IMG/VR virus record: IMGVR_UViG_3300046462_000479
DNA: 13,618 bases
From: a virus
Lineage: Duplodnaviria; Heunggongvirae; Uroviricota; Caudoviricetes
Direction: 5' to 3' (one strand)
In this document: in pieces, positions 450-13,560 of the stretch
Layout of the letters: every line of letters starts with the position of its first letter
How positions within the stretch are numbered: position 1 is the stretch's first letter
Translations under genes and position numbers: made by a program
The notes under the pieces: generated by a model
The model's database searches: none
Seen by the model: the letters and a program-made list of their open reading frames with translations, nothing else
What the model was told of the DNA's origin: nothing

Positions 450-1108
450 CTGTTTCCTCGCTGGTTTGTGGTTTTGTCCAGGGCGACGATCTTCCTGGCA
501 TATTCTTTAGGCCAGACTGTTCGGTAGTAGTCATCGTGGTCTGGATGGCAATAAGCTGGCGGAAGCACGATGTTGGGAGGATTGGTAGCAAGGACGCTGT
601 TCAGGGCAGATTCGTCATGCCAGACCGGCGTGATCCCTTGTTCTACGTCTTTGTCGATGCGGAGGGCGATCTGGCTGGAGAGGACGTGCATGTCGTCGTG
701 CGGTCCTCCGACGAAGCCGCCGCAGCAGTAGACGACGCGCAGCTGTTCCGGGACGAAGCAGTGGCTGTCCGGCCGTGTTTCGAAGGGGAGCATGGGGCCG
801 ATCGTGTTGACGTAGCCGGGATGTTGGGTGGCGGTGATGCCGGTGCCGAGGATTTCTGTTCTGACTGGGCCTTCGAAGCGCATGTCGGCGTCGATCAGGA
901 ACACGTAGTCGGTGTCGGGGAACCGGTTGAGCAGGTGGTGGTGGCGGTACATGGTGCCGTCCGGCCAGCCTTCGTCTCCTTCGACGGTGAAGAAGTGGGG
1001 GTTGCGGTCGGCGAGGAAGTGGCTGGTGGCGCTGCTGAACATTTCGCGGGCGAAGTCGGTGTACAGGCCGGGGCTGGCGACGGCTACGAGGCTGACAGAT
1101 TCGGCCAT
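446..1108 (-). CDS. Family 6 (GT6, ABO/alpha-1,3-Gal(NAc)T-like) glycosyltransferase
   Basis: GT6 hallmark motifs in the correct order: VAVASPGLY, YVFLIDADMRF (DxD), QHPGY, PFETRPDSHCFVP, YCCGGFVGG, WHDESALN, C-terminal KIVALDK. Confidence 0.88.
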   Translation of the reverse strand: MAESVSLVAVASPGLYTDFAREMFSSATSHFLADRNPHFFTVEGDEGWPDGTMYRHHHLLNRFPDTDYVFLIDADMRFEGPVRTEILGTGITATQHPGYVNTIGPMLPFETRPDSHCFVPEQLRVVYCCGGFVGGPHDDMHVLSSQIALRIDKDVEQGITPVWHDESALNSVLATNPPNIVLPPAYCHPDHDDYYRTVWPKEYARKIVALDKTTNQRGNR

Positions 1109-1668
1109 AGCCTGGTCATTCCGGCTTGTGATTCGAGGAAGTGGACGGTGTAGCTGTCGGGGGTGCGGGCCATGAAGTCGGCGATGGCTTGTCCGGGCCC
1201 GTTGCGGGTGTCGTGGCAGAGCATGACGGCGGTGGGTGTGATCCGGTGGATGAGTACGAGTTCCCGGAACACGTTTTCTTTCAGGTGGTCGCCGTCGAGG
1301 AAGAAGAGCGGGCTGCGCATACCGGATTGGGCGTAGGCGAGCAGGGCGGTGGTGACGCCGTCTCCTCGTAGCTGTTTGACGGGCATCCGTTTCAGGAACA
1401 GTCCGGTTCCTTGTCCGGCGTGGTCGCGGTCTAACAGTTCCAGTTCGGGGGGCAGGTCGACGGTGACGATGGTCGGTTTAGTTCCTGCTGCTTTGCTGGC
1501 TTCGTGGAAGATGCGGGCTGAGCTGCCTCGGTTGGTGCCCCAGTCGCCGATGAAGTCTGGTTTGAGCCGTTCTACTGTTTCGGCCATGAACGTGACTTCG
1601 TCGCGGCCGTAGCCGGGAAGGCTCATGCCTTCGATTTTCTCGTTGACCTGGTCGACGATGCTGCTCAT
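1084..1668 (-). CDS. Class I SAM-dependent methyltransferase (Methyltransf_24/CmcI-like)
   Basis: Motif I variant IGDWGTNRGSS, then VTVD, LFFLDGDH and LCHD. ATGA overlap with the upstream gene. Confidence 0.8.
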   Translation of the reverse strand: MSSIVDQVNEKIEGMSLPGYGRDEVTFMAETVERLKPDFIGDWGTNRGSSARIFHEASKAAGTKPTIVTVDLPPELELLDRDHAGQGTGLFLKRMPVKQLRGDGVTTALLAYAQSGMRSPLFFLDGDHLKENVFRELVLIHRITPTAVMLCHDTRNGPGQAIADFMARTPDSYTVHFLESQAGMTRLWPNLSAS

Positions 1669-2552
1669 TCGAACGCTCTTCCGATCGCTTGGATCGAGTC
1701 CCGGTAGGTGTAGTTGCTGACGAAGCGTTGTTGTTCGCGGACGAGTTCGAGGTAGTCGTTCCGTTTCAGGCTGAGCGCCCAGTCGAGCTGTTCTTCGAGG
1801 CTGCCGACGGGGAAGCTGAGGCGGTGGGCGAGCAGGAACACGTTGGTGATGCCGAGCTGTCCGTAGCTGACGTTTTTGAAGGCGCGGCAGGGCAGGTAGC
1901 TGTGTTCTGTCTGCCAGCGTCCGGCGAAGGCTGGCGCGATCCTGCCTGCCCGGACCAGCTGCACGTTTTCTGTGTCGCTGATGTGGGTGTACAGGCGTAG
2001 GGAGAGGTGGCGGAGCAGGAGCAGCCGTTCCAGTTCGGAGATCATGGTTTTGTTGCCGAGTTCTGTTCCTGGTTTGGAGGTCAGGTCCGACCAGACGGCG
2101 CCGATGAAGGGGACGGTGGTCGCGGACGGGTTGTAGACGGGTTCGTAGAACTCTTCGGGGAGCAGGTCTGTGCCCCAGGGCTGGAAGAGGATGCGGCTGT
2201 CCGGGTCGTATTGGCGGAAGGTGTGGAGCGGCAGCCCGTAGGCGTCGCTGGTCCAGACTTGGAGGCGGAGTAGCCGGTCGGGTTCGACGGTCCGGCAGAG
2301 CGGGTCGGCACCGTCGAAGTTGTGGATGACGTAGTTGACGCCGGGGATGGCGTTGCCGATCTGTTTGCCGCAGACGTCGGCGGCGATGACGGTGGTGTCG
2401 GGCATGAGTTGGCTACGCGATTCTGGTGTGTCTGGCAGCCATAGGCTGACGATCCCCATTTTTAGGGCGGTCTGGTGGTAGTGGCGCCAGATGTGGCGGA
2501 GGCTGTCGAGGCTGTCGGTGCCGCCCCAGAGGACGAGCCGGTTTACCGCCAT
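1665..2552 (-). CDS. Putative GT-B-type glycosyltransferase (CgeB/Glyco_trans_1_2-like C-terminus)
   Basis: 295 aa. VPFIGAVW, and YLPCRAFKNVSYGQLGITN resembling the RxFE...G...ITN segment. Coupled within the GT operon. Confidence 0.55.
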   Translation of the reverse strand: MAVNRLVLWGGTDSLDSLRHIWRHYHQTALKMGIVSLWLPDTPESRSQLMPDTTVIAADVCGKQIGNAIPGVNYVIHNFDGADPLCRTVEPDRLLRLQVWTSDAYGLPLHTFRQYDPDSRILFQPWGTDLLPEEFYEPVYNPSATTVPFIGAVWSDLTSKPGTELGNKTMISELERLLLLRHLSLRLYTHISDTENVQLVRAGRIAPAFAGRWQTEHSYLPCRAFKNVSYGQLGITNVFLLAHRLSFPVGSLEEQLDWALSLKRNDYLELVREQQRFVSNYTYRDSIQAIGRAFE

Positions 2553-2791
2553 GACTCTTGGAGGAGTTCGGCGCTGGTGCCTAGCGTGGCAACAAGCTGG
2601 CTGGCGGCCCGAACAACGTTTTTGCAGGAGGACCAGAGGGCTTCCAGGTCTTCTCCGTCTGAGTCGGGTAGCTCGATGCCGTTGTCGGCTAGCGCTTTGC
2701 GGTAGAGCAGCAGCTGCATGGTTAGTCTGCCGAGTTCTTCTCGGTGGCGCATCTCGATGGCGATCAATGTGGCGTGTTCGCGGCTAGTCAT
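2543..2791 (-). CDS. Hypothetical helical protein (82 aa)
   Basis: ORF fills the gap with overlaps at both ends and has a helical/coiled-coil-like sequence. Confidence 0.7.
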   Translation of the reverse strand: MTSREHATLIAIEMRHREELGRLTMQLLLYRKALADNGIELPDSDGEDLEALWSSCKNVVRAASQLVATLGTSAELLQESWR

Positions 2792-2948
2792 TGCCGAGAC
2801 CGTATCCGTTGATGAATTCGTCGACGGCCCGCCGCGCGTCTCTGCCTGCCTGGTGTTCCTGTCCTTCTTCGATGATGACTTCGGTCGAGATTCTGAGTTT
2901 GTCTGCCGGGGTGGTTGCTACTTCTAGTTCTATTCGGATTGTTCTCAT
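2784..2948 (-). CDS. Small hypothetical protein (54 aa, MRTIRIELEVATT...GLGND; not in the ORF track)
   Basis: ATG 2948 overlaps TGA 2947-2945 (ATGA). Its TAG 2786-2784 overlaps the next start at 2791, so it fills the operon gap exactly. Confidence 0.7.
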   Translation of the reverse strand: MRTIRIELEVATTPADKLRISTEVIIEEGQEHQAGRDARRAVDEFINGYGLGND

Positions 2949-3748
2949 TCGAAGGTCAGCTCCATTTCTGCGTGTGCTGCAGTTACCCGATCGCTTTTAA
3001 TGCTGTCGAGGTTGAGGCGTCGTCCTTCGCAGTAGGCGTTGTTGAGGTCTCGTTCTGGCGCTTCATGGGTTTCTGCGTACCGGTTCGGGTGTGTTTCGTT
3101 GACGCGGTTGACCGGAACTCCTACTAGGTGCGATTCTCGATAGCAGGACGCGTAGGGGCTGAGCATGGTCTGTGTTTCGGATTGCAGTATTTCTTCGAGC
3201 TGGTTGGGGTTGTTGAAGTTGCGGCTGCCGTCGAGCATGTCCAGTAGGTCGTCTCTGTGGAACAGGTGGCCGTCGAGTGAGCCCATATAGCCGAAGTCGG
3301 CGTCGGCTTGCCGCCAGTCCCAGACAAGCAGGTCGTCGACGGCTTCGAAGGTGGGCAGGCCCTGAATGCGGCGCAGCGGGTAGCACTGGCCTGTGTTCAG
3401 TCCGAGCCGGAGGCTGAAGCAGAGGATCTCTTCCATTTTCAGGGCGACGTCCGGCCGGGTGAGTCCGTTAAGGGGACGGTAGAAGACGCTGTCGTCGGTG
3501 AGGAAGCAGGCGTGGTCGCAGGCGAGGTCGAGCAGGTCGAGGACCTGCGTCTGGAAGTTTGATTCTCTGAAGAAGTCGACGGGGTGGTCTTGCATCGTCT
3601 GCCAGTAGGCTCGTTCGTATTCGTCGTCGGTGGCGGTCCAGATGACGGTGATCTGGTCGAACAGGTTGTCGGTGTGACATGTCACACTGCGTAGGAGCAG
3701 GTCGAGCTGGCAGGCACGGTTTTTGCTGAAGACGATGGCGCTATTCAT
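2945..3748 (-). CDS. Putative GT-A-like glycosyltransferase (267 aa)
   Basis: Start reassigned to ATG 3748 (ATGA overlap). Motifs IVFSKNRACQLDLLLRS, CFLTDDSVF (acidic metal-binding motif), FGYMGSLDGHLF. Confidence 0.62.
   Translation of the reverse strand: MNSAIVFSKNRACQLDLLLRSVTCHTDNLFDQITVIWTATDDEYERAYWQTMQDHPVDFFRESNFQTQVLDLLDLACDHACFLTDDSVFYRPLNGLTRPDVALKMEEILCFSLRLGLNTGQCYPLRRIQGLPTFEAVDDLLVWDWRQADADFGYMGSLDGHLFHRDDLLDMLDGSRNFNNPNQLEEILQSETQTMLSPYASCYRESHLVGVPVNRVNETHPNRYAETHEAPERDLNNAYCEGRRLNLDSIKSDRVTAAHAEMELTFE
3672..3687. repeat. Palindrome copy 1 GTGTGACATGTCACAC
   Basis: Perfect 16-bp palindrome inside the 5' part of the 2945-3748 gene. Confidence 0.95.
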
Positions 3749-3966
3749 GTGTGGGTGGTGCCGTTGATGAGCGCGTGCTTTTTGCAGTGTTTGTGGACGG
3801 TTCCGGGGATGGGGACGGTGGCTGGCCGGATGCAGCCTTTTTCGACGCAGTGGAGGTGTCGGAGGGCGAAGAAGTAGGTGAGCGGCACCCAGATGATGCT
3901 GGCGACGAGGTTGGTGAGAACGGCTCCTGTGTCCCATCCGAACCAGTCGTTGACGATCCGGGTCAT
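3745..3966 (-). CDS. Small membrane protein (73 aa) with a Cys/His-rich C-terminus
   Basis: ATG 3966 (ATGA overlap). Hydrophobic segment GAVLTNLVASIIWVPLTYFFAL, then HCVEKGC...HKHC. Confidence 0.7.
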   Translation of the reverse strand: MTRIVNDWFGWDTGAVLTNLVASIIWVPLTYFFALRHLHCVEKGCIRPATVPIPGTVHKHCKKHALINGTTHT

Positions 3967-4175
3967 AGGGGGATCATGTCCATGTTGGTGATGTCTTCCG
4001 GCCAGAGTCGTCTGATGATCCCGTTGATTTTGACTTCGTAGACGACTCGCGGTTTTTCCCATTCTCCTCTGCGGTCGATGACCCGTTCGACTTCGCTGGG
4101 GGCTGCGACGATTGTTTCTCCGTCTGCTGTTTTGATCTGCCAGCGGAACTCGCGTTGTCTGCTGAGGCCTTTCAT
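3963..4175 (-). CDS. Hypothetical protein (70 aa)
   Basis: 4-bp overlaps at both ends, within the operon. Confidence 0.7.
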   Translation of the reverse strand: MKGLSRQREFRWQIKTADGETIVAAPSEVERVIDRRGEWEKPRVVYEVKINGIIRRLWPEDITNMDMIPL

Positions 4176-4807
4176 TGGTCGTCTCCCGGTCTGATGAGGG
4201 CGATGACGGTTCTATCGAAGACGGGTTCGCCGAGTTCTGCTTGTAGGGCTTGGGTGTAGTCCCAGTCGCCTTCGTATCGTTGGCCGAAGCGTGCGTTGCA
4301 GGGTCGGGCGAGGATCATGGGTGTGCCTATGTCGCCGTGGCGGAGTATGGGTTCTCGCCAGCAGGTGATGCTGCGGGCGGGGTGGTTGTCGCCGAAGTGC
4401 ATCCGGTAGATGGCCCAGGGGGCTGTTTGGCGTCTGAGTTGTCCGAGGGTGCCGGGGACGGCTATGTCGTCGTCGTCGATCGTCCAGATGTAGTCGGCGT
4501 CTGGTTGTTGGTCGAGGACGTGGTTGCGACTGTTGTGGCCCCAGCAGCCTCCGTCGTTGAAGGGGATATAGGTCCAGGTGGCGAGGCTGTAGCGTTTGTG
4601 TTCTTGGCTGAGGTAGGCGACGTCGATGCTTTCTGTTCCTGTTACCAGGTCTGTGTGGACGATGTAGACGTGGTCGTCTTCTTGTAGGTCTGGTGCGAAC
4701 GAGGAGAGGGTGCGGACGAGGGTTTGGCGGCCGATGGTGGGAACGATGATGGCGAGCTTGGTCGGAGAGGGTGTTGCTTCGCCGTCGAGCGTGTTTACTA
4801 CCGTCAC
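4172..4807 (-). CDS. GT2-like glycosyltransferase
   Basis: LAIIVPTIGR, GHNSRN, YIWTIDDDD (DxD), GDWDY. RBS AAAGGAG upstream of GTG 4807. Confidence 0.8.
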   Translation of the reverse strand: MTVVNTLDGEATPSPTKLAIIVPTIGRQTLVRTLSSFAPDLQEDDHVYIVHTDLVTGTESIDVAYLSQEHKRYSLATWTYIPFNDGGCWGHNSRNHVLDQQPDADYIWTIDDDDIAVPGTLGQLRRQTAPWAIYRMHFGDNHPARSITCWREPILRHGDIGTPMILARPCNARFGQRYEGDWDYTQALQAELGEPVFDRTVIALIRPGDDQ

Positions 4808-5010
4808 TTGTTTCTCCTTTCGTGGGGACGGCTCTGGCGCATACTGTCGGTGACGAGGTTGATGGGGTTGAAGGAGGGGAACAGGCAGTTGGTGCAGATG
4901 TGGGGTATGTGGTCCATTAGTCGTCTGGGGGTGTGTTTGCCGCAGTCGATGCAGTCGGCTGTCCCGTAGTCTGGTTGCGGCTGAGGGTTTGGTCCTTTGC
5001 TGCCTACCAT
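4804..5010 (-). CDS. Small Zn-ribbon protein (68 aa)
   Basis: ATG 5010 overlapping the upstream stop. CIDC and CTNC pairs. Confidence 0.65.
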   Translation of the reverse strand: MVGSKGPNPQPQPDYGTADCIDCGKHTPRRLMDHIPHICTNCLFPSFNPINLVTDSMRQSRPHERRNK

Positions 5011-5531
5011 TCCGGGACTGTCGTGAGCGGCTCGGTGGGGCGGCCTTCCATCAGCTGTTTTTTCGGGTTTAGGTGTTGTACTGCTGGGAGGTGCACGTGT
5101 GGCTGCTCCTTGTAGTGGCGGGCGAGAATGTGGCGCATGAGTACGACGTCGACTTGGTTCCAGCTGACGTTTGAGTCTTGGACTCCTTTCATTGCTGCCG
5201 GGTATTTGGCTAGGAATTCTGCTTTGAACCAGGTGCAGCCGAGGGCGGGGCCGACGTCGGTCAGCCACGGGTACGGGTAGCAGCCGTAGGGGCAGCCGCA
5301 GGTCCGGAACGCTTCGATGACGTCATGGCGGACGACGATGTCTGGTTCGACGACCATGAACGTTTCTCCGGTCTGCCAGTGGTTGGCAAGGACGCGTGCG
5401 TAGGCGTGCGGGTCGTCCGCACTGATTTCGGTCAGTTCGAGGTTAACTTCTTGTCCGAGGACGTGCAGTTCGAGGGCCGAGAGCGTTTCGTCGTACAGGC
5501 TGCCTGGCGTGTAGATGGTGACGACCCTCAC
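5004..5531 (-). CDS. Putative short GT-A-like glycosyltransferase (175 aa)
   Basis: FMVVEPDIVV (ExD variant of DxD), ALGCTWF (GxGC-like), WNQVD and a late His, consistent with a GT2-like fold. Confidence 0.55.
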   Translation of the reverse strand: MRVVTIYTPGSLYDETLSALELHVLGQEVNLELTEISADDPHAYARVLANHWQTGETFMVVEPDIVVRHDVIEAFRTCGCPYGCYPYPWLTDVGPALGCTWFKAEFLAKYPAAMKGVQDSNVSWNQVDVVLMRHILARHYKEQPHVHLPAVQHLNPKKQLMEGRPTEPLTTVPEW

Positions 5532-5548
5532 TGGTCGACCCTACGCTT

Positions 5549-7021
5549 CTATCCTGCTTCTGTCCAGCGGCTCCGGCCTGATCCGGGGCTGGCGATGACG
5601 GGGACGGGGAGGCTGGTTTGGTCTGGTAGCGGGTCGGTGGGGGTGAGCGGGCTGGTTCCGGGTTTGAGGCTGGCTTGGTAGCGGTTCCAGGCGTCGTTGT
5701 CTCCGGTTGCTTCGCTGGTCCATTTGCTGCCGCCGGTTTGGGGGATGCCGGTGGGCTGCATGTGTTTTTTGAGTTTCCAGGGCATCCGTTTGACGGCGAG
5801 GGCGACGGCCATGGCGATGTCGTCGTGGGCGCCTTCGGGGACGGCGTAGCGGACTCCGCGGGGGGTGTAGTCGTATTCGAAGCTTTCGAGTTCGTCTCGG
5901 AGGCTGCCGCGGCCGTCGGAGAGTTTGAGGTCGGGGAAGTGGATGCGTTCGTCTTGGATGGCGAGGGCGAGGCCTTCGAGGAGGTCTTGGCGGCTGCGTT
6001 CGCTGAAGGTGTAGCCGAGGACGCGCATGTCTCCGCGTCGTTGTAGGTCTTCGACGATGGCGTCGCCGGTGCCTGTGCTGTCGACGAGGGCTTGGGTTCT
6101 GCCGATGCGGCGGACGATTTCGGTCATGGTTTCGCGGTGGGGTTTGCGGAACCGGTCGAGGTGGGTCATGTCGCCTTGCCGGTCGAGGAGGCAGATGGCG
6201 GTGTAGTCGCGGGCTTCGGCGTCTCGGACGGTGGTGAGGTTGACGGCTCCGCGTCCTGCGAGGTCGACTCCGGCGGCGATCGGCTGCGCTTTCGAGTAGG
6301 CGGGAACGATGCAGTTTTCGATGGCTTTGAGTCCGAACGGGTTTGAGGTGTCGTCGAGGGCTTCGGCCATGTATAGCTGGCGGAAGACGTCGTCTTGGCC
6401 GAGCCGGTGGAAGTCGCGTTGGGCGGCTTTGATTTCGGTGTCGTCGAGGACTCCGGCTTGGACGGCGTCCCAGGCGGTGATGCGGTGGTAGGCCATGTCG
6501 GGTTCGCCGGATTCGGCGAGGCGGCTGAGCCGGTAGAACCAGTTTTTGCGGCCGCGGACGTTGCCGATGATGCGGACGGGTCCTTTGGTGAAGGTGAGGG
6601 TGCTGCGGATGGCGTGCCAGGATTCTTCTCTCATGCGGCTGGCTTCGTCCATGACGCAGGCGTAGACGTCTTCGCCGTAGAGGTCGTCTGGACGGTCGCC
6701 TGATTTGAACATGAGCCGGGTTTGGTTGGGGAGGGTGATGAGGAAGGTGGATTGGTTGCGTTTGCACATTCCTTTGATGGGGTTGAGCATGATCCAGCCG
6801 CGCCGGAAGGCGATTTCGGCTTGGCTGAAGACGGGGGCGACCCACCAGTAGTTTTGTCCGGGGTTGCCGCGGAGGGACTGTTCGATGATCCAGGCGAGGC
6901 AGCCTGATGTTTTTCCGGCTTTGGTTGAGGATTCGATGCAGCTGATGCGTGCGGGGTCGTAGATTGCGGCTTTTTGTTTGGGGTAGAGGGATGCTGGTTC
7001 GAACTGGATGGTTTTGGCCAT
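5549..7021 (-). CDS. terL: Phage terminase large subunit
   Basis: Walker A-like ESSTKAGKT, Walker B CVMDEASR, coupling motif IIGNV. RNase H-like nuclease motifs GVDLA...DYTA, VDSTGTG, HDDIAMAVALA. An in-frame TAA upstream fixes the ATG at 7021. Confidence 0.93.
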   Translation of the reverse strand: MAKTIQFEPASLYPKQKAAIYDPARISCIESSTKAGKTSGCLAWIIEQSLRGNPGQNYWWVAPVFSQAEIAFRRGWIMLNPIKGMCKRNQSTFLITLPNQTRLMFKSGDRPDDLYGEDVYACVMDEASRMREESWHAIRSTLTFTKGPVRIIGNVRGRKNWFYRLSRLAESGEPDMAYHRITAWDAVQAGVLDDTEIKAAQRDFHRLGQDDVFRQLYMAEALDDTSNPFGLKAIENCIVPAYSKAQPIAAGVDLAGRGAVNLTTVRDAEARDYTAICLLDRQGDMTHLDRFRKPHRETMTEIVRRIGRTQALVDSTGTGDAIVEDLQRRGDMRVLGYTFSERSRQDLLEGLALAIQDERIHFPDLKLSDGRGSLRDELESFEYDYTPRGVRYAVPEGAHDDIAMAVALAVKRMPWKLKKHMQPTGIPQTGGSKWTSEATGDNDAWNRYQASLKPGTSPLTPTDPLPDQTSLPVPVIASPGSGRSRWTEAG

Positions 7022-7036
7022 GCGGGGAGTATCGCA
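7022..7036 (-). promoter_or_regulatory. Possible extended -10 for leaderless terL transcription
   Basis: TG-C-GATACT 6 nt before the ATG and no SD upstream of terL. The first position of the -10 is non-consensus. Confidence 0.3.
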
Positions 7037-7040
7037 GATC

Positions 7041-7070
7041 TTGACACACCCCCCTGTACTGTAGTATACT
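7041..7070 (+). promoter_or_regulatory. Sigma70/SigA-type promoter for the rightward gene string
   Basis: TTGACA (7041-7046), 18-nt spacer, TATACT (7065-7070). Confidence 0.75.
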
Positions 7071-7077
7071 TATGTGT

Positions 7078-7160
7078 GGAGGAGTGCTGCGTGTGGGCGC
7101 GCGCTCCTCCCTCTCCAGGGGGGGCGGTCCGCTTGACCCGGCGGGCCGCCCCTTCTCCCC
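7078..7160 (+). other. Structured 5' leader with two hairpins
   Basis: GGAGGAG 7078-7084 / CTCCTCC 7104-7110, and GGGGCGGTCCGC 7121-7132 / GCGGGCCGCCCC 7141-7152 (12 bp, one G-U). Confidence 0.6.
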
Positions 7161-7164
7161 TAGC

Positions 7165-7176
7165 GTGACATGTCAC
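7165..7176. repeat. Palindrome copy 2 GTGACATGTCAC
   Basis: Intergenic, between the leader hairpins and gene 7209. Confidence 0.95.
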
Positions 7177-7208
7177 ACTGGCGGTTCGATCCTATGAGGG
7201 AGAGTGGT

Positions 7209-7433
7209 ATGCCGTACAAACACTATGAGGACAAGTTGGCTGCGCAGCGGCGCTGGTATGCGGCACATCGGGAGCAGGTGATCGCGAGCGTTGCTGCCCG
7301 GAAGCGGTCGTTGTATGCGGGTACGTGTCGGAGCTGTGGCGGGCCGACGGTCGGCAATTCGAAGCTTCAGGTTCCGGAGTGGTGCGGGAAACCTGAGTGT
7401 AGGAGGGCGCAGTGGATAGCAAAGAACAGATGA
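7209..7433 (+). CDS. Small basic Zn-ribbon protein (74 aa)
   Basis: ATG 7209 after GAGGGAGAG. CRSCG and WCGKPEC motifs. Confidence 0.72.
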   Translation: MPYKHYEDKLAAQRRWYAAHREQVIASVAARKRSLYAGTCRSCGGPTVGNSKLQVPEWCGKPECRRAQWIAKNR

Positions 7434-7714
7434 CGGTGATCGTGATGCGGGTGGAGGACCTGGAGGTTCCGTATGTCCCGTCGACGGTGTTGGTGTGTGA
7501 CCGGTGCGGGACGCCGGTGTGGTTGGACGTAAAGAACGTGCCGGTGGTGCGGCGGGAGGCGGCGAAGGTTGTCTGTCAGCGGTGTGCGCTGCCGGAGCTG
7601 CTGGTGTGCGGGATGGATGGGGCGATGGTGGGCGGAGACCGGGTCGACCTGCCGGACGACATGGCGGGCGAGATCATGGCAAACATGGTCGAGGACGAGT
7701 TGGGGCGGTCGTGA
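7430..7714 (+). CDS. Zn-ribbon protein (94 aa)
   Basis: ATGA overlap at 7430. CDRCG and CQRC motifs. Confidence 0.72.
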   Translation: MTVIVMRVEDLEVPYVPSTVLVCDRCGTPVWLDVKNVPVVRREAAKVVCQRCALPELLVCGMDGAMVGGDRVDLPDDMAGEIMANMVEDELGRS

Positions 7715-7890
7715 GGCGCCCGTTCGGGAAGCTGATGGATCTGTTGGAGGCCGATTTGCGTCAGCCGGACAGGCCGGACTGGAAGCTTGGCGAGCTGGCC
7801 TCGAAGTACGGTGAGCCGGTGGAGCGGATCATGGATGCGTTGGACGCGATCCGGGAACGCAACGGCGAAAAGACGTATATCTCGGTGTGA
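7711..7890 (+). CDS. Small protein, possible HTH (59 aa)
   Basis: GTGA overlap. WKLGELASKYGEPVERIMDAL is HTH-like. The stop TGA lies inside a palindrome copy. Confidence 0.65.
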   Translation: MRRPFGKLMDLLEADLRQPDRPDWKLGELASKYGEPVERIMDALDAIRERNGEKTYISV

Positions 7891-7900
7891 CATGTCACAC
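7885..7900. repeat. Palindrome copy 3 GTGTGACATGTCACAC
   Basis: Contains the stop codon of gene 7711-7890. Confidence 0.95.
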
Positions 7901-7919
7901 TCGATTGGGGAGGTTTGTG

Positions 7920-8204
7920 GTGGAGGATGAGGCGAAGATTGTGGAGCGGGAGGGTGGGGTCGAGGTGTTCGATCAGGGGGACGCGCACGCCCGCCATCTG
8001 ATTGAACGCGAGGGCAATGTGGCGGTGGTGGTGGCGGCGGTGACGAAGGACGGCGATTCGCAGTGTTTGGCGATGTTGGCGTCGCCGGTGAATGCGGAGC
8101 AGCGCAACTTTCTGTTGGCGTTTCTGGCGGAGGTGGGAAGGACGCTGGTCAATCGGGCTGAGTTGTTGGACGGGATGGAGTTCGATGGTGACGGCGAAGC
8201 GTAG
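7920..8204 (+). CDS. Hypothetical protein (~94 aa)
   Basis: GGGAGG RBS at 7908-7913 with GTG 7920. Alternative in-frame start at GTG 7887. Confidence 0.65.
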   Translation: MEDEAKIVEREGGVEVFDQGDAHARHLIEREGNVAVVVAAVTKDGDSQCLAMLASPVNAEQRNFLLAFLAEVGRTLVNRAELLDGMEFDGDGEA

Positions 8205-8922
8205 GTGGAGGGCGGCGGAGGCGGCCCGCCTGTATGGGCTGTTGGGGTCGCAGCGTCTGGTGGCGGAACGGATGGGCGTGTCCCGGAACGTGGCGTCGGA
8301 TCTGTTGTCGGATCCGGATCGGGCGAAAGCGTTGGCGCGCCGGGCGGGGTATGCGGGCGTGTGTGTGGATTGTGGCGGACCGACGGACGGCAGCCTGGGT
8401 GCGGGGAAGACTTCGAGGCGGTGTCTGGCGTGTAGTAGGGCGAGGGCTCGTGCGGGCCGGAAGTGGACGGAGGAGACGATCGTGGACGCGATTCGCCGGT
8501 GGGCTGACACGCATGACGGCCGTCCGCCTGGGGCGATGATGTGGAAGAAGGCGGACCGGGAGAACAACTATCCGTCGTTTTCGCAGGTGTATGCGCCTGG
8601 CGGCCCGTTTCCTAAATGGTCGGATGCGATTGTGGCGGCCGGGTTCGAGAGTCGTACGGGCGTCTATGAGCGGTCGGGTGTGCGCGGGTTGAAGCAGAGG
8701 ACGTTGCGGGGTTTGTTGTTTGTGCAGGAGCGTCGGGGTGGGCGGGTGACGCCGGACATGTTGGCGTGGAGGTTGGGGTTGGAGCCGTCGGCCGGGTTTC
8801 AGATGTTGGGGATTTTGTGTCGGCGCGGGCTGGTGGAGCGGGTGGCTCGTGGCGATTACCGGCTGACGGAGGCTGGAGAGCAGTGTGACTTGTCACACTT
8901 AAAGGAGGGGAAGAATGGCTGA
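8185..8922 (+). CDS. Multi-module DNA-binding protein: HTH + Zn ribbon + homing-endonuclease-associated repeat + winged HTH
   Basis: Start ATG 8185 after GGAG. SQRLVAERMGVSRNVASDLL (HTH); CVDC..CLAC; KWTEETIVDAIRRW...RPP...YPS...FPKWSDAIVAAGF (HNH_repeat-like); VTPDMLAWRLGL...LCRRGLVERVARGDYRLTEAG (wHTH). Confidence 0.75.
   Translation: MVTAKRRWRAAEAARLYGLLGSQRLVAERMGVSRNVASDLLSDPDRAKALARRAGYAGVCVDCGGPTDGSLGAGKTSRRCLACSRARARAGRKWTEETIVDAIRRWADTHDGRPPGAMMWKKADRENNYPSFSQVYAPGGPFPKWSDAIVAAGFESRTGVYERSGVRGLKQRTLRGLLFVQERRGGRVTPDMLAWRLGLEPSAGFQMLGILCRRGLVERVARGDYRLTEAGEQCDLSHLKEGKNG
8882..8899. repeat. Palindrome copy 4 AGTGTGACTTGTCACACT
   Basis: Immediately 5' of the RBS of gene 8915. Confidence 0.95.
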
Positions 8923-9187
8923 CGGTAATAGGTTCGAAGCGTTTTCGGAGTCGGAGCGGGTGTTGTTGATGATGGGTTTGACGTTAGACATCATGGATAT
9001 GATGTACGGGATCGTGTCTGATGAGCCTGCCTCTCCGGTTGTGGCGCGTGAGAAGATGCCGATCATGATCCGGATGGTGAACGAGATGGCGGACACTTTT
9101 GGCACAGACGCGGTTAACCGTGATCTGGTGGCGCAGCTGATGGCGGTGTTGGATCAGCGGGCGGCGGAGGCTCGTGATGCCGGTTGA
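8915..9187 (+). CDS. Hypothetical helical protein (90 aa)
   Basis: Strong RBS AAGGAGGGG and an overlapping start. Confidence 0.75.
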   Translation: MADGNRFEAFSESERVLLMMGLTLDIMDMMYGIVSDEPASPVVAREKMPIMIRMVNEMADTFGTDAVNRDLVAQLMAVLDQRAAEARDAG

Positions 9188-9377
9188 TGCGCGCATACCT
9201 GTTGCTGGTCGGGCTGCCGGTCAGGTCGCGACGGTTGGAGGCCTGGTACCGGAACATGTTTCTGCGGCCGCGTTTCACTGGTGGTGTGTCTTCTGTGGCC
9301 ATGACTGGGTGGGCGACGAAACGATGTTTGCGTGTCCTGAGTGTGCTGAGGAGACGTGGGTAGGCCACGATGCTTGA
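9187..9377 (+). pseudogene. Small Zn-ribbon gene apparently split by a -1 frameshift near 9273-9276
   Basis: Frame A from ATG 9187 (TGATG overlap) looks coding up to ...FLRPRF. The -1 frame then reads HWWCVFCGHDW...CPEC and ends at 9377, overlapping the next start. Confidence 0.45.
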
Positions 9378-9555
9378 TCCGCCCGACGATCTGGAAGAGA
9401 TGGTGGCAGAGATGTGGCGGAAAGGTCTGTCTCCGGAGGATGGGGGCGACATGCTGCTCAGCTTGTATTCGGCGGAAGATCTGGCTGTGCGGCTGGTCGC
9501 GATGGACCCGGACGGCTGGGTGACCGAAGAAGACGAGAAACGGTTTGGAGGGTGA
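9370..9555 (+). CDS. Small acidic hypothetical protein (61 aa)
   Basis: Overlapping start and coding-like codon usage. The stop TGA lies inside a palindrome copy. Confidence 0.7.
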   Translation: MLDPPDDLEEMVAEMWRKGLSPEDGGDMLLSLYSAEDLAVRLVAMDPDGWVTEEDEKRFGG

Positions 9556-9563
9556 CATGTCAC
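9552..9563. repeat. Palindrome copy 5 GTGACATGTCAC
   Basis: Contains both the stop of gene 9370 and the start of gene 9557. Confidence 0.95.
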
Positions 9564-9721
9564 AGTGGGCCGAGTTCGAACTGCTGCATCCCGGCTGGGC
9601 GCTGGCCGTCCGTCTGGTGGACCGGCTGCTCGTCTACGCGGTCGCGCTGGTCCTGGTCGTCTGCTTCCCCGTGACGATGCTGGTCTTGTATTTGGTGCAG
9701 TGGTGGAGAGGAAAGATTTGA
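9557..9721 (+). CDS. Small single-pass membrane protein (54 aa; not in the ORF track)
   Basis: GGAGG RBS 5 nt before ATG 9557, which lies inside the palindrome. LLVYAVALVLVVCFPVTMLVLYLV is a TM segment. TGATG overlap with the 9721 start. Confidence 0.72.
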   Translation: MSQWAEFELLHPGWALAVRLVDRLLVYAVALVLVVCFPVTMLVLYLVQWWRGKI

Positions 9722-9933
9722 TGGCCGAACAAAACGATCGGGACGACTTGAAGACCGCTTCCGTATGGGGTCGCTACGGCCCGCTCGCCTGCGACGAGTG
9801 CGAGCGGCACTTCCTCGACAACATGCCCGCGCTACTCCACGCCTCCGCATCGGTCGGCATCGAGCACGCCCTCACCACCGACATGGCGCTCGACGCCTAC
9901 TTCGAGGCTTACCACCGAGAGAATCATGCCTAA
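9721..9933 (+). CDS. Hypothetical protein (70 aa, CDECERH motif)
   Basis: Start reassigned to ATG 9721 (TGATG coupling, GAGGAAAG upstream). Confidence 0.7.
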   Translation: MAEQNDRDDLKTASVWGRYGPLACDECERHFLDNMPALLHASASVGIEHALTTDMALDAYFEAYHRENHA

Positions 9934-10483
9934 GCGCGAATCGCAGACCGCGAACGTATGCGGGAGGGTGGCCGATCTCATCGAGGGACTTGGCGAGATT
10001 TACACGCGCGAGGGCGTCCACATCTGGCTCACCGGACGCCACCGGCTGCTTGGCGACCGCACGCCACTCGATGTGATGCGCGACGAGGGCGGCCTCGACC
10101 GCGTAGAAGCCCTGCTCGCGTATGGGGGCGACCACTACGCGGCAGACCCGCTCGGGACACACATCTCATCGACCGCGAAAGATCGTGCGAAGTGGTCTGA
10201 CCTGTTGGACGAGGACGATCTCGCCATCATCGCGGAAGATGCGAACCCGAAGACCGCTTCCCTATACGAGCGCGAGACGAAGGCACAGGTCGCCTTCTGG
10301 CGCGAGCAGTTCTTCGGTGCCGACAGTCGCGTGGCAGAACTGAAGGAGGCGATCCGGGACGCAATCGAGAACATCGAGAGCGACGTTTACCTGAACGCCG
10401 TCGATGCGTTAGATACCGGCCCGATGATTGCGGCCATCGTGGAGACGAAGCAGCGGCTCAAGGCGGCGGTGGGCGATGTCTGA
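9926..10483 (+). CDS. Protein with an N-terminal Xre/MbcA/ParS antitoxin C-terminal-like domain fused to an acidic helical region
   Basis: IYTREGVHIWLTGRHRLLGDRTPLDVMRDEGGLDRVEALL fits the W-L-x4-x2-L-G-x2-P-L pattern of the antitoxin toxin-binding domain (DUF2384-like). Confidence 0.65.
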   Translation: MPKRESQTANVCGRVADLIEGLGEIYTREGVHIWLTGRHRLLGDRTPLDVMRDEGGLDRVEALLAYGGDHYAADPLGTHISSTAKDRAKWSDLLDEDDLAIIAEDANPKTASLYERETKAQVAFWREQFFGADSRVAELKEAIRDAIENIESDVYLNAVDALDTGPMIAAIVETKQRLKAAVGDV

Positions 10484-10706
10484 CGAGAACCTCAAGACCG
10501 CAAAAAGCTGTGTCGCGTGGCTGCTCGGTCGGAAGGTCGATCCGCGCGAGACGACCATCGTCAAATTCATGCCGACGAGTCCGCCGCTGCGCGGAACCAT
10601 CGTCCTCGTAGACGGAGTCCGCTGCCGGGTGAGCTACGCGCGCGTGACGTGGGATGGGCCGCGCTGGACGATCCGATCGCTGCGCGTCAAAGGAGCTGCT
10701 TTATGA
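10476..10706 (+). CDS. Hypothetical beta-rich protein (76 aa)
   Basis: ATG 10476 overlapping the upstream stop. ATGA overlap downstream. Confidence 0.68.
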   Translation: MSDENLKTAKSCVAWLLGRKVDPRETTIVKFMPTSPPLRGTIVLVDGVRCRVSYARVTWDGPRWTIRSLRVKGAAL

Positions 10707-10981
10707 CCGCTTCTGATACGCCGCCCATGAGTCCGTGCATCGGCTTCGGAGAGTTCGAGGGGACATGCGAGAACGAGGCCGGAGATTCACCGTGGTCGAA
10801 GCTGTGGTGTCTGCGCTGCGACCGTCTACGCCTCGACCACATCACGGCCCAGATGGAAAAGATCAGCGCCCGATTCGCTGTCGAGGCTCCTCCCCACCCA
10901 GAGGAACGGACACCAACATCCGAACCGGCAGGCCACGTTCCCTCCAAACCTGCCCCCAACCAGATTAACCGCTCCGCATAG
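10703..10981 (+). CDS. Cys-containing hypothetical protein (92 aa) with a Pro-rich tail
   Basis: AAGGAG RBS and ATG 10703. C-x9-C...CLRC spacing. Confidence 0.65.
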   Translation: MTASDTPPMSPCIGFGEFEGTCENEAGDSPWSKLWCLRCDRLRLDHITAQMEKISARFAVEAPPHPEERTPTSEPAGHVPSKPAPNQINRSA

Positions 10982-11149
10982 AACGGCGGGGCGTGGACGC
11001 TAACGGGCAAGCCGAACCGGAGGAACAAACGCACACATCCGCGTTCCTGCCTCCGTCCAGGACAGAACCGGCCAACCCCTAAGAAGGCGGGAACAGCCGA
11101 AGCTCGTCCACAAGGCGCACCGTGCGCCCCACCGCCAGCGAAGACACCA

Positions 11150-11169
11150 AGGCCCCCGAAAGGGGGCCT
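11150..11169. terminator. Hairpin between convergent transcription units
   Basis: AGGCCCCC-GAAA-GGGGGCCT, a perfect 8-bp stem. A weak T-rich tail follows on the minus strand. Confidence 0.6.
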
Positions 11170-11188
11170 ACGTGTACCCGCAAACAGT

Positions 11189-11200
11189 GTGACAAGTCAC
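11189..11200. repeat. Palindrome copy 6 GTGACAAGTCAC
   Basis: One base beyond the stop of the RHH gene. Confidence 0.95.
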
Positions 11201-11201
11201 G

Positions 11202-11477
11202 CTACCCATCACACACCCGGCAAAACTGATCCGGCCTCAACCGATGCTCACACATCACCCTCCGAACCTCCACAGGCGGCAACTCACTCACAACAACCGA
11301 CGGACCCGACGGCACCGGACGCAAAGGCTCCCGCACACCACCCCCACCCTCACCATCCCACCCATCCAAAAACCGCTCCAACGCCAACACCACAACACGA
11401 TGCTTCGCCGCACCCGTCAAACGACAATATGCCGCCAACCGCCCCTCCAACACCTCCGACAACCTCAAAGTAAACAC
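11202..11477 (-). CDS. Ribbon-helix-helix (CopG/Arc-like) DNA-binding protein with a C-terminal C/H Zn motif
   Basis: From GTG 11477: FTLRLSEVLEGRLAAYCRLTGAAKHRVVVLALERFL, the RHH strand-helix-G-helix pattern. Ends CEH...CRVC. Confidence 0.75.
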   Translation of the reverse strand: MFTLRLSEVLEGRLAAYCRLTGAAKHRVVVLALERFLDGWDGEGGGGVREPLRPVPSGPSVVVSELPPVEVRRVMCEHRLRPDQFCRVCDG

Positions 11478-11518
11478 ACACCAAACGATACCACAAGACA
11501 CCACACCACAAGATACCA
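11478..11518 (-). promoter_or_regulatory. Extended -10 promoter overlapped by three 13-bp direct repeats
   Basis: TG-G-TATCGT (11493-11485) 7 nt before the GTG. Plus-strand repeats CCAAACGATACCA 11481, CCACAAGACACCA 11491, CCACAAGATACCA 11506. Confidence 0.5.
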
Positions 11519-11706
11519 TTAAGTACCAACTGGGCCCACAACACAAAAACTAGCGGACAGCCCGCGCGCCCCGGCGGGTGTTGTCGGTTTCGTAAACTGT
11601 GGGTTTGTTGCCAGTCTAGGCTACGCCGGCCGCCCCCGTTGCCTTGTTGGCATACGTGTTGCCCGCACGGACAATGCTCCAGGCGCACGTTGCCCTAGCT
11701 GGCGAC

Positions 11707-11728
11707 GGAGCGTGACATGTCACGCTCC
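11707..11728. repeat. Palindrome copy 7 GGAGCGTGACATGTCACGCTCC
   Basis: Perfect 22-bp palindrome, intergenic. Confidence 0.95.
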
Positions 11729-11805
11729 CCGTCCCTCGCGCGTAGGCCCGCGTGGCACCGAGCCGGATAGGCCGCACGGGCGAGGGTGAGGGTGGGGGTG
11801 CGGCG

Positions 11806-11847
11806 GGCCGTGTGTGCGGCCGTGTGCGGCCGTGTGAGGCCGTGTGT
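11806..11847 (+). repeat. Four tandem copies of GGCCGTGTG(N), ~10-bp period
   Basis: Copies start at 11806, 11818, 11828 and 11838. Confidence 0.85.
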
Positions 11848-11864
11848 GGGTGGGTGGGCATAGA

Positions 11865-11892
11865 GAGAGGCCCGCCGGGTGGCGGGCCTCTC
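11865..11892 (-). terminator. Probable intrinsic terminator after the 314-aa gene
   Basis: Perfect 12-bp stem GAGAGGCCCGCC/GGCGGGCCTCTC with a 4-nt loop, 27 nt past the stop. No long U tract. Confidence 0.65.
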
Positions 11893-11919
11893 GGGTGGTG
11901 CGTGGTGGGTGGTGGGGTG

Positions 11920-12864
11920 CTACTGGGTGAGCTTGACTAGCTCGTCCGTCTCGTCCTTGGTGAAGCGGGCTGCCTTGCGGGCGTCGTTGTCCTTGACGGT
12001 TGCCTTTCCGTCGGCGACCTTGGCGGCGTAGCGCAGCTCATCGGATGCGCGGTTGAGGTGGGATGCCACGGCGGCCCGCTTGCCCGCGTACGCTTCCGGC
12101 TTGACCTTCCCCATCGTGTCGGCGACGAGGGTTGCTAGCCGGTTGAGGTTCGCCGCGACGAACAGCGGCGAGAGGGTGCCCGCCGCGAGGGCCTCGACGG
12201 CGGTATTCAGGGATGCCGACACGGACGAGGGTTCCCCTTCCGGGCCTGCCTGCTTGTCGGTCTTGCCTTTGACCGGGCCGCCGTACTTGACGGGGAGGTT
12301 CATCCCGGTTCGCCGGTACTCAGCCAGCACTGCCCGTGCGAACGCGGGATGTTCCTTCGGTGCTGCGGGCACGGACGGATGCCGTTCCGTCTCTTCGGTC
12401 CACTTCGTCACCTTGACGTCCGGGGTGACCTCGTCCAGCACGTAGGCCACAATGGCCGCTTCGAGGATGCCGTTGCGGCCCATCATCTGACGGGCGGCGT
12501 TCTTGATCCCCGACACGATCCTCTTGCCTTCGTCCGTCAGCTTGCCGTCGGAGTCCGCGAGGGATGCGAACGCCGCATCCTCCGCCTTGCCCACGGTTGC
12601 CCGGTACTCGTCCGTGTACGCGGTCTGGTTCCACACCGGGAGTCCCTTGGCGTCGCGGATGATCGAGCGAGCCGAGGCATAGGCAACGGCCAAGCCATAG
12701 TGCACTTCCGTCGCCTTGCGGCCAAGCTCCACGGCCTGAGTCAAGAGGGTGGTGATCGTCCCCACGATCTTGCCCAACAACTTCTCATCCTTTGCGGATG
12801 AACCGTCTGTGATCTCCACAGACTCCGTGCTGGTGGTGCTGGTGGTGGGTGCTGCTGCGGGCAT
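11920..12864 (-). CDS. Ala/Lys-rich helical hypothetical protein (314 aa)
   Basis: Long ORF with strongly biased codon usage, RBS GGAAGGAG, and its own promoter and terminator. No family recognised. Confidence 0.85.
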   Translation of the reverse strand: MPAAAPTTSTTSTESVEITDGSSAKDEKLLGKIVGTITTLLTQAVELGRKATEVHYGLAVAYASARSIIRDAKGLPVWNQTAYTDEYRATVGKAEDAAFASLADSDGKLTDEGKRIVSGIKNAARQMMGRNGILEAAIVAYVLDEVTPDVKVTKWTEETERHPSVPAAPKEHPAFARAVLAEYRRTGMNLPVKYGGPVKGKTDKQAGPEGEPSSVSASLNTAVEALAAGTLSPLFVAANLNRLATLVADTMGKVKPEAYAGKRAAVASHLNRASDELRYAAKVADGKATVKDNDARKAARFTKDETDELVKLTQ

Positions 12865-12913
12865 ATCCCGCTCCTTCCGGTGGGGAGAGGGTGACTCCCT
12901 CTCTTCACCAAGG

Positions 12914-12943
12914 ACACTATCGGTTCAGTACCGGGGGAGTCAA
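12914..12943 (-). promoter_or_regulatory. Sigma70/SigA-type promoter
   Basis: TTGACT (12943-12938), 18-nt spacer, TAGTGT (12919-12914), followed by a 7-bp leader hairpin at 12885-12903. Confidence 0.65.
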
Positions 12944-13004
12944 GGGTCACGACAGTACCTTCGTATGGGTATGAAACACACCTAGACGCGGCCTATCCGG
13001 GCCT

Positions 13005-13159
13005 GTGTTGCCCGCCTGGAATACGAACATACACGACCGCCCGCAACACGCACTAGCGTCGCCCGCCTGGAGCAAACCCGGTCGAGTGCCGGCCGGCACA
13101 TGCAAACACGGCTAGCGCCGCCGGCGCCAGGCAAACCCGGTAGAACATGCTCCAGGCGG
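13005..13159. repeat. Degenerate direct and inverted repeat region
   Basis: ~41-bp units at 13043 and 13102 (period 59); GCCCGCCTGGA at 13010 and 13061; 12-bp inverted repeat 13063-13074 / 13148-13159. Confidence 0.65.
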
Positions 13160-13166
13160 TGCGACA

Positions 13167-13182
13167 GTGTGACTTGTCACAC
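13167..13182. repeat. Palindrome copy 8 GTGTGACTTGTCACAC
   Basis: Core at 13169-13180, just past the 13192 stop. Confidence 0.95.
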
Positions 13183-13191
13183 CTCCGTCGG

Positions 13192-13401
13192 CTACATCAG
13201 GGGATGCCGTGACACCGGGACGGGAGTGTGACTTGTCACACTGTCACCCCCCAAACCCTCGACCGCTTTGTTCTCGCCACGGTGTACCGCCATCCCGATT
13301 AACCGTTCCAACATCTCGTCCCACTCGACCGATGGATTCTCGCGGGCCTCACGCGCCACAACCGGCAATAGAAGTCTCAGCTGCACGTTAGAAAGCTTCA
13401 C
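13192..13401 (-). CDS. Hypothetical protein (~69 aa)
   Basis: GTG 13401 (or 13407) after GGGGG. MKLSNVQLRLLLPVV... is divergent from the 13420 promoter. Confidence 0.5.
   Translation of the reverse strand: MKLSNVQLRLLLPVVAREARENPSVEWDEMLERLIGMAVHRGENKAVEGLGGDSVTSHTPVPVSRHPLM
13225..13242. repeat. Palindrome copy 9 AGTGTGACTTGTCACACT
   Basis: Core at 13228-13239, 59 bp from copy 8, with extra half-sites GTGACA (13209) and TGTCAC (13242) flanking it. Confidence 0.95.
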
Positions 13402-13419
13402 GTACACACCCCCAATCGC

Positions 13420-13448
13420 TTGACAGGGAATCGAACCAGGAGTAGTGT
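13420..13448 (+). promoter_or_regulatory. Sigma70/SigA-type promoter, leaderless
   Basis: TTGACA (13420-13425), 17-nt spacer, TAGTGT (13443-13448), ATG 7 nt later. Confidence 0.75.
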
Positions 13449-13455
13449 TCTCGGC

Positions 13456-13560
13456 ATGATCACTTACTTCCTCACCGCGTTGTTCATCGTTGCCGCCGTC
13501 CGCTACATCATCCGGTACGGCATCGGCAACGTCCGCCGCCCGCGGGGCTACCGTGCGTAG
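13456..13560 (+). CDS. 34-aa membrane microprotein (not in the ORF track)
   Basis: MITYFLTALFIVAAVRYIIRYGIGNVRRPRGYRA: hydrophobic N-terminus, basic tail, GC3-rich codons, start at the predicted TSS. Confidence 0.62.
   Translation: MITYFLTALFIVAAVRYIIRYGIGNVRRPRGYRA

Follow-up and report, generated by a model that had tools for sequence, protein, structure and literature searches.

For more than ten years, several groups of phages have been known to carry short invariant palindromes dispersed over the genome, mostly at gene junctions (Cluster O since 2015, Cluster EG since 2020), without an established reader or purpose. A repeat of this kind, GTGAC-WW-GTCAC (W being A or T), occurs in IMGVR_UViG_3300046462_000479, a 13,618-nucleotide stretch of an uncultured Caudoviricetes soil virus from IMG/VR, which was analysed at its full length and is referred to here as the window. 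The feature is real and of a known kind. What is new is its anatomy (GTNAC boxes, base switching between related phages and spacer tolerance), together with a candidate reader, a 69-amino-acid (aa) protein encoded at 13192-13401(-), which displays a one-residue specificity signal. A literature search for the motif strings returned just unrelated plant papers.

Among the closest described systems is the 17-bp repeat TGTTCGG-NNN-CCGAACA of the Cluster O mycobacteriophages (Corndog), whose binder and purpose were not established (Cresawn et al. 2015, PMC4351075). No later work on this repeat turned up in the literature search. Both repeats comprise invariant inverted arms around a short A/T-rich spacer (the nine cores of the window all have WW centres, and the relatives are alike), and both lie mostly in short intergenic regions or near the 5´ ends of genes, with some copies inside genes and no convincing orientation bias of the spacer. 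In both cases the sites bracket rearranged segments, and the structural genes are interspersed with genes for methyltransferases and glycosyltransferases. Cluster O genomes contain tens of copies each, compared with nine in the 13.6-kb window. However, the sequence is a different one, the palindrome arms are shorter here (5-7 bp, with a spacer of 2-3 nt) and the phage lineage is unrelated. The concerted switching of one base among relatives and a nameable candidate reader further distinguish the present case.

The Microbacterium phages of Cluster EG carry an 18-bp inverted repeat, GATCAACC-NN-GGTTGATC, for which no function has been established (Jacobs-Sera et al. 2020, PMC7302621). Like the window repeat, it has a 2-nt spacer, occupies short intergenic regions (at 14-22 bp from the start codon that follows) and persists where flanking genes diverge. 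In contrast, its 8-10 copies are confined to the right end, its sequence is different and variant switching has not been described for it. The consensus differs, deposited phages give no nucleotide match and the large terminase (TerL) is less than 30% identical to any of theirs: the window phage is an analogue, and not a member, of Clusters O and EG.

Other systems offer models of function. The stoperators of Cluster A phages, which are the sites of the L5 gp71 repressor, are dispersed in short intergenic regions, co-vary with their reader protein among phages and act as elongation roadblocks. They are asymmetric sites of 13-14 bp, oriented with transcription and bound by the monomeric immunity repressor of a temperate phage, whereas the palindromes described here are perfect and unoriented, and the open reading frames (ORFs) of the window yielded neither an integrase nor a cI-like repressor. 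By analogy, stoperators may serve as the best functional model for the palindromes, and they are adopted here as a working model.

The matS sites of E. coli, read by MatP, are dispersed 13-bp sequences (GTGAC-RNY-GTCAC) with an organising rather than a promoter role. They have the same half-sites as the G-type variant described below, and copies with three-nucleotide spacing occur in two relatives of the window phage (L026 and L022). However, the nine window copies are all 2-nt-spaced, with no exact copy of a 3-bp centre in the window, and the T- and A-type variants do not fit; the likeness is one of sequence only. The original prediction had named matS and the SlmA site as analogues: the resemblance in sequence stands, but a scan of the window ORFs against Pfam (10517-10981 not being covered at the lenient threshold) revealed no MatP-like or SlmA-like protein. 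Finally, the KorB protein of the IncP-1 plasmid RK2, a single global regulator of the ParB family, controls many operons through about a dozen dispersed short palindromes (OB). The present case is similar in having dispersed palindromes on a mobile element, although sequence and site number differ, and KorB/OB stays a live alternative because proteins with ParB_N and helix-turn-helix (HTH) domains are encoded nearby in relatives.

Palindrome copies in the window and in related phages

A search for the pattern GTGACWWGTCAC gives exactly nine matches in the window and none in 200 dinucleotide-preserving shuffles, which bears out the original claim of an excess over chance. The nine cores of that claim, at 3674, 7165, 7887, 8885, 9552, 11189, 11712, 13169 and 13228, are all exact, and their centres are indeed AT in five cases, TT in three and AA in one. 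When one mismatch is allowed with the 2-nt spacer, zero additional sites appear, so the copies are all-or-none. Their usual extended form is (c/g)aGT-GTGAC-WW-GTCAC-ACt(g), and perfect 16-bp palindromes account for five of the nine.

Under revised gene calls, the site centres of five copies are intergenic, and three copies (3674, 8885 and 13228) lie inside reading frames. The copy at 3674..3685, an exact match in the 5´ part of the late gene 2945-3748(-), forms codons for Ser-Val-Thr-Cys-His and has its positional homologue at 10403 in the relative L018. The copy at 7165..7176 lies in the divergent control region between TerL and the small genes and ends 32 nt before the ATG at 7209; it belongs to the leader, about 95 nt downstream of a promoter at 7041-7070, without overlapping it. 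The copy at 7887..7898 supplies the TGA of gene 7735-7890, and the next start, GTG 7917, follows 18 nt on, after the ribosome-binding site (RBS) GGGGAGG. Similarly, gene 8185-8922 has the copy at 8885..8896 in its last codons, and ATG 8915 (RBS AAGGAGG) follows after 18 nt. The copy at 9552..9563 is shared by two genes: gene 9370-9555 takes its TGA from it, and a gene for a 54-aa membrane protein its ATG (9557). Two copies flank the gene of a ribbon-helix-helix (RHH) protein: 11189..11200 starts 1 nt past its minus-strand stop, before a bidirectional terminator hairpin (11151-11169), and 11712..11723, which has the longest arms (11 nt), lies 231 nt upstream of it in a 370-nt non-coding stretch. 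The last two accompany the candidate reader gene, 13169..13180 lying 11 nt past its stop and 13228..13239 within its last codons.

The overlap with stops (7887 and 9552), a start (9552) and coding frames, which the original prediction had pointed out, therefore holds under proper gene calls. Its observation that eight copies lie in the right half is true of the window, but the palindrome is not an early-only element, as relatives have copies in late genes (10403, 13210 and 17176 in L018; 14682, 18282 and 20732 in L022). The right-half bias reflects a small-gene region without overlaps, as opposed to the tightly overlapping late genes.

The gene for TerL (5549-7021, minus strand) was used as the anchor for finding relatives. 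Of 2173 TerL homologues, around 40 are 66-79% identical, and the DNA around seven of these was examined; TerL relatives in IMG/VR and JGI metagenomes are only about 50% identical and come without the motif. The relative L018 contains GTGACATGTCAC six times, L019 and L020 contain GCGTTACATGTAACGC, and L022 contains cGTAAC-N(2 or 3)-GTTACg sixteen times in 21 kb, with a free centre, while L021 and L023 are almost motif-free. With the contigs L024-L028 included, the central base of GTNAC is G in the window, L018, L024 and L026, T in L019, L020, L025 and L027, and A in L022 and L028. All of the copies within one genome share this base, and related phages differ in it. In the G-type L026, two ATT-spaced copies are found besides the 2-nt type. 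Where relatives have hybrid sites with one mismatch, the mismatch is the central N of one arm. These variants define the unit as a pair of GTNAC boxes whose central base is lineage-specific and whose short spacer is flexible (2 or 3 nt, mostly A/T).

The placement of the sites is also conserved. Across six loci, 32 of 49 sites are intergenic, compared with 8.9% of the DNA (binomial P about 3e-22), and the typical distance to a start codon is 11-32 nt for most of the sites in the window and its relatives. The divergent region upstream of TerL holds a copy of the phage's own variant in each motif-bearing locus (7165 in the window, 7036 in L018, 6548 in L019, 7448 in L020 and 9759 in L022). Site position is conserved while the sequence switches. 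Furthermore, the small-gene region upstream of TerL is almost wholly different between relatives, and the junction motif persists in it.

Inside coding sequence, the copy at 3674, which is retained in L018, reads as the codons AGT GTG ACA TGT CAC (SVTCH). At the same place the motif-poor L021 encodes SVTCN by other synonymous codons, AGC GTC ACC TGT AAC (GTCACCTGTAAC), and the palindrome is lost, which indicates that phages using the motif preserve it through their choice of synonymous codons.

L021 itself contains one perfect "C-type" palindrome, GCGTCACATGTGACGC, at 16932, and a decayed copy at 13092, homologous to window 3674. This phage may represent a fourth variant or a lineage losing the system.

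A candidate reader that co-varies with the motif

The 69-aa protein encoded at 13192-13401(-), with a GTG start, has at its N terminus a domain of about 45 aa (MKLSNVQLRLLLPVV...), which a variable linker connects to a conserved HPL(F/L/M) tail at the C terminus. A full HMMER search retrieved around 25 representative family members among 1.8 billion proteins, ranging from 65 to 110 aa, most of which close with the HPL(F/L) tail. Word-based homologue searches and scans of viral and genome contigs gave no match, either with this protein or with the RHH protein. The AlphaFold model consists of a free N-terminal arm and two confident helices, followed by a disordered linker. Homologues adjoin the sites in L020, L022 and L024-L028, and in eight of eight genomes, the window included, the gene lies within about 700 nt of the nearest copy, usually at 85-350 nt.

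Residue 4 of this protein follows the central base of the motif in all eight genomes: serine with G (window, L024 and L026), asparagine with T (L020, L025 and L027) and threonine with A (L022 and L028). Five of them were typed first (window and L024, Ser-G; L020 and L025, Asn-T; L022, Thr-A). For the other three, the base was predicted from the protein before the DNA was read, as G for P0131 (Ser), T for P0132 (Asn) and A for P0128 (Thr), and the three predictions were correct, with GTGAC nine times, GTTAC four times and GTAAC once in the respective contigs L026, L027 and L028. Among about 48 aligned columns, residue 4 is the sole one that partitions by motif type. Over the rest of the domain, identity is 0.50 within the G type, 0.48 within the T type and 0.47 between G and T, and on a weakly resolved tree built without the residue-4 column the G label requires three changes and the T label two. 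N5 and Q7 do not vary in the eight typed members, and residue 2 is K or R in every one of them; Q7 is conserved in at least 90% of 23 aligned family members. The window and its relatives hence present a selected, position-conserved, lineage-specific word and, next to it, a small protein with one residue that tracks it.

It is proposed that the palindromes are a genome-wide recognition site on double-stranded DNA, with the 69-aa protein as the most likely reader; on the sequence comparisons above, this whole statement is given a probability of roughly 0.45. The protein is the best candidate for a reader of these repeats. In the site, a 5-bp GTNAC box and its complement would flank a spacer of 2 mostly A/T bases (sometimes 3 in relatives), N being the specificity position. 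The N-terminal arm and first helix would contact the box, placing residue 4 at the central base pair, which it may read. The protein is envisaged to bind as a symmetric oligomer that reads the boxes separately, which would explain why 2- and 3-nt spacers are both tolerated; a partner could be brought to the gene junctions by the conserved HPLF tail at the C terminus.

Binding would then regulate or mark the junctions. The likeliest consequence would be transcription control, junction by junction, by a roadblock or insulator like that of the stoperators, with marking or organising of the phage chromosome as a close second; any single physiological role is unlikely when taken on its own. The lineage variants would act as separate, "immunity-like" specificity groups. 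That the 65-110-aa family is a new miniature DNA reader, with a one-residue, one-base code, an HPLF-tethered partner and mutually blind groups among co-occurring soil phages, is a tentative extension that we regard as possible but doubtful.

Several points weigh against the proposal that the 69-aa protein reads the palindromes on DNA. The protein has no Pfam, PDB-sequence or fold match and resembles no known DNA-binding family; it is near-neutral in charge, and its model offers only a helical hairpin and a free N-terminal arm. Structure searches (Foldseek and VIA-align against PDB) returned just generic helical hairpins with Z of 6 or less, and profile searches of the family gave no match to PDB sequences or to the RHH alignment. 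The typed genomes are few (n=8), and the two A-type proteins are close kin (0.64 identity) and so count as one event. The types of L024 and L028 each come from one site in a contig of about 1.3 kb. As the tree is poorly resolved, joint inheritance of protein and motif is a further possible explanation. None of the palindrome copies overlaps the candidate's own promoter, and a 1-bp change of spacer is unusual for a rigid dimer. Moreover, the same co-variation would be expected if the protein read an RNA or single-stranded DNA hairpin, or partnered the true reader.

The interest of the system lies in natural variation having done the genetics, since one base per site and one residue in one small protein differ between relatives. 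If the proposal is true, it would provide a DNA-recognition module both compact and programmable, show how one short word suffices for phages to wire or mark a whole genome and open a route to the readers of the Cluster O and Cluster EG repeats.

Competing explanations for the sites

The core idea of the original prediction, that the palindromes are sites for a symmetric (dimeric) phage protein, is the best-supported reading, because the 12-nt core is invariant, the base switch is concerted, the copies upstream of TerL are kept and the RNA hairpins are weak and strand-unbiased. The binders that it named fare poorly. One of them, the multi-HTH protein at 8185..8922(+), is a winged-HTH protein (MarR_2-like; Pfam 1.5e-5, below the gathering score) with an HNH-associated repeat, and its homologue is absent from every relative's locus examined. 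The other, the RHH protein at 11202..11480(-), with a Cys-rich tail (CxHRLRPDQFCxxCDG) seen in its translation, recurs solely in L022. A third protein, the 314-aa neighbour encoded at 11920-12864(-), was rejected as a binder, being also present in the motif-poor L021.

The alternative that survives best is that the sites are DNA operators of another phage protein, either the RHH protein or a KorB/OB-like ParB_N/HTH protein, the co-variation of the 69-aa protein then reflecting only partnership or linkage. Copies stand on both sides of the RHH gene (11712 and 11189) and, in the same way, of its L022 orthologue (5772 and 6518), which matches Pfam Arc (5.5e-5) and has the strand LSLRL where the window protein has TLRL. 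Operators of the Arc/MetJ/CopG kind typically have short boxes at a distance of 7-8 bp, and an RHH beta-ribbon would fit the 5-bp boxes, which have that separation. A ParB_N protein with flanking HTHs is encoded 4.5 kb from the small gene in the G-type L026 (Pfam 3e-7 for the domain) and in a relative from ENA. However, the RHH protein is present in just two of five motif-bearing loci, counting the window, and was not detected in L018, L019 and L020, though these loci cover the syntenic stretch; no ParB gene was found in the window. Neither protein explains why one residue of the 69-aa protein follows the motif. We regard this alternative as unlikely.

Further observations concern the RHH protein itself. 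Its neighbours in the atlas are all RHH families, with scores below 0.9, and its predicted model is too poor to use (predicted local distance difference test, pLDDT, 39). The L022 protein, at about 6096-6452, shares the Cys-rich tail; the database gene call in that phage (5595-6452) looks too long, with around 165 extra codons drawn from a non-coding leader in which a palindrome copy lies. The linker of the window protein, GVREPxxPxxP, is common to an unrelated-looking L019 protein (2276-2539), and such stretches may therefore be modular short motifs.

A second alternative places the recognition in RNA: the palindrome would form a hairpin upstream of the RBS, read by a phage protein (possibly the 69-aa protein), and set mRNA processing, stability or translation of the next gene in polycistronic transcripts. 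Most copies do lie inside operons, 0-15 nt upstream of an RBS, and the stop codon of the upstream gene falls inside an arm in seven copies. A spacer that may have 2 or 3 nt, and in L022 any sequence, suits a loop and is awkward for a rigid DNA-binding dimer, and the changes in the arms are compensatory by construction. Nevertheless, the hairpins are weak and very unequal. As RNA, the copies reach -3.8 to -10.7 kcal/mol, with only 11712 attaining -21; at 9552 the core hairpin is not the minimum-energy fold; and the invariant core gives just 4-5 base pairs, so that sequence, and not stability, is conserved. By a hand tally, TT and AA centres are split 6:6 relative to the sense strand, and copies occur at convergent and divergent junctions, as well as within coding sequence, where they are kept by synonymous codons. 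Stems of this size are also too short for RNase III. The true terminators of the window are G+C-rich hairpins, unlike the palindromes, none of which was among the terminator-like matches in a test for intrinsic terminators, their stems being weak and a T run after the sites being absent.

With hairpins so weak and unequal and no sense-strand bias, the sites read as protein recognition sites on DNA, which they probably are. Recognition of duplex DNA by a symmetric reader is thus favoured over RNA, and the freedom between 2- and 3-nt spacers is the best argument for a hairpin, or else for independent reading of the boxes. The RNA alternative is accordingly judged quite unlikely. Other kinds of DNA site were considered and rejected: a sigma-70 promoter, since a -10 element is missing at the right distance and the sites have palindromic symmetry; a CRP/FNR-type site, which has the wrong spacing; and a restriction or modification site, as the motif is enriched and not avoided.

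The palindromes could also be, as the original prediction had offered as its own alternative, primarily recombination or cassette-boundary sites. On this view they would drive a shuffling of genes, and their uniformity within a genome would come from gene conversion or spread and not from a regulator. The evidence is circumstantial. Besides the persistence of the junction motif in a small-gene region that differs between relatives, it concerns a conserved helical protein of 300-334 aa and unassigned family (window 11920-12864(-), L020 1557-2459, L022 3876-4880 and L021 1-871). Its gene is flanked by palindrome copies in the window, L020 and L022, and shares its strand with TerL in the window and L021 and not in L020 and L022, which suggests inversion between palindromes. 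In Cluster O phages, deletions have been described between copies of their repeat (PMC4351075). On the other hand, no recombinase linked to the sites was found in the window, and the relatives, all at about 70% nucleotide identity, are too distant to place breakpoints on the sites. Copying fails to explain the codon-kept copy at 3674 or the co-variation of a single residue, and recombination from repeat to repeat is an expected side effect of any dispersed repeat. This explanation is highly unlikely.

Lastly, that a host factor reads the sites, with the G, T and A variants reflecting different hosts, would be compatible with the phage having no cultured relative (TerL is less than 30% identical to that of any deposited phage), but is extremely improbable. 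The three types belong to closely related phages that all come from soil-type metagenomes, the variant is matched by a residue that the phage itself encodes, and the comparable Cluster O repeat does not occur in the genome of its host (PMC4351075).

Gene layout and other elements of the window

The late genes of the window run on the minus strand from 1 to 7021 and include a series of glycosyl- and methyl-transferase genes and the large terminase. The ORF 5541-7049(-) is an out-of-frame shadow of the terminase gene that misleads searches; the coding phase of third-position G+C (GC3), the Pfam terminase match and the homologues are found only for 5549-7021. The promoter at 7041..7070(+), a sigma-70-like TTGACA-N18-TATACT with 11 of 12 consensus matches, precedes a block of small genes that runs rightward from 7209 to 10981. 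This block converges on the terminator at 11151-11169 with three leftward genes, those of the RHH protein (11202-11480), the 314-aa protein (11920-12864) and the 69-aa protein (13192-13401). No tRNA or Rfam family was found in the window, and it has no nucleotide match to deposited phages. All or part of it is contained in 20 public DNA runs from soil and rhizosphere, two of which may be its source, and no RNA run is listed among the public runs that contain it.

On the plus strand, GC skew is +0.15 to +0.4 from 1 to about 9500, independently of gene strand, and turns near 10-10.5 kb. This looks like a replication-type strand asymmetry, the apparent switch point of which would fall inside the small-gene block. 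The 370-nt non-coding stretch between the terminator of the 314-aa gene and the RHH gene carries tandem GGCCGTGTG(T)GC repeats at 11806-11859, and a 20-nt inverted repeat (11756-11775 and 12988-13007) brackets the 314-aa gene. Divergent from the candidate reader gene, at 13420-13560(+), a promoter-like TTGACA-N17-TAGTGT is followed by a hydrophobic ORF of 34 aa, in an arrangement that resembles a small switch region.

Within the small-gene block, 9926-10483(+) encodes the C-terminal toxin-binding domain of an Xre/MbcA/ParS antitoxin (Pfam 3.2e-8), with the RES toxin absent nearby. The corresponding variable region of the relatives contains matches to Acb2/Tad1-hairpin proteins (of the anti-CBASS/Thoeris sponge type), a Ku homologue and the ParB_N protein flanked by HTHs (L019 1503-1670; L020 5724-6062; L026 1394-2248 and 3730-4659).

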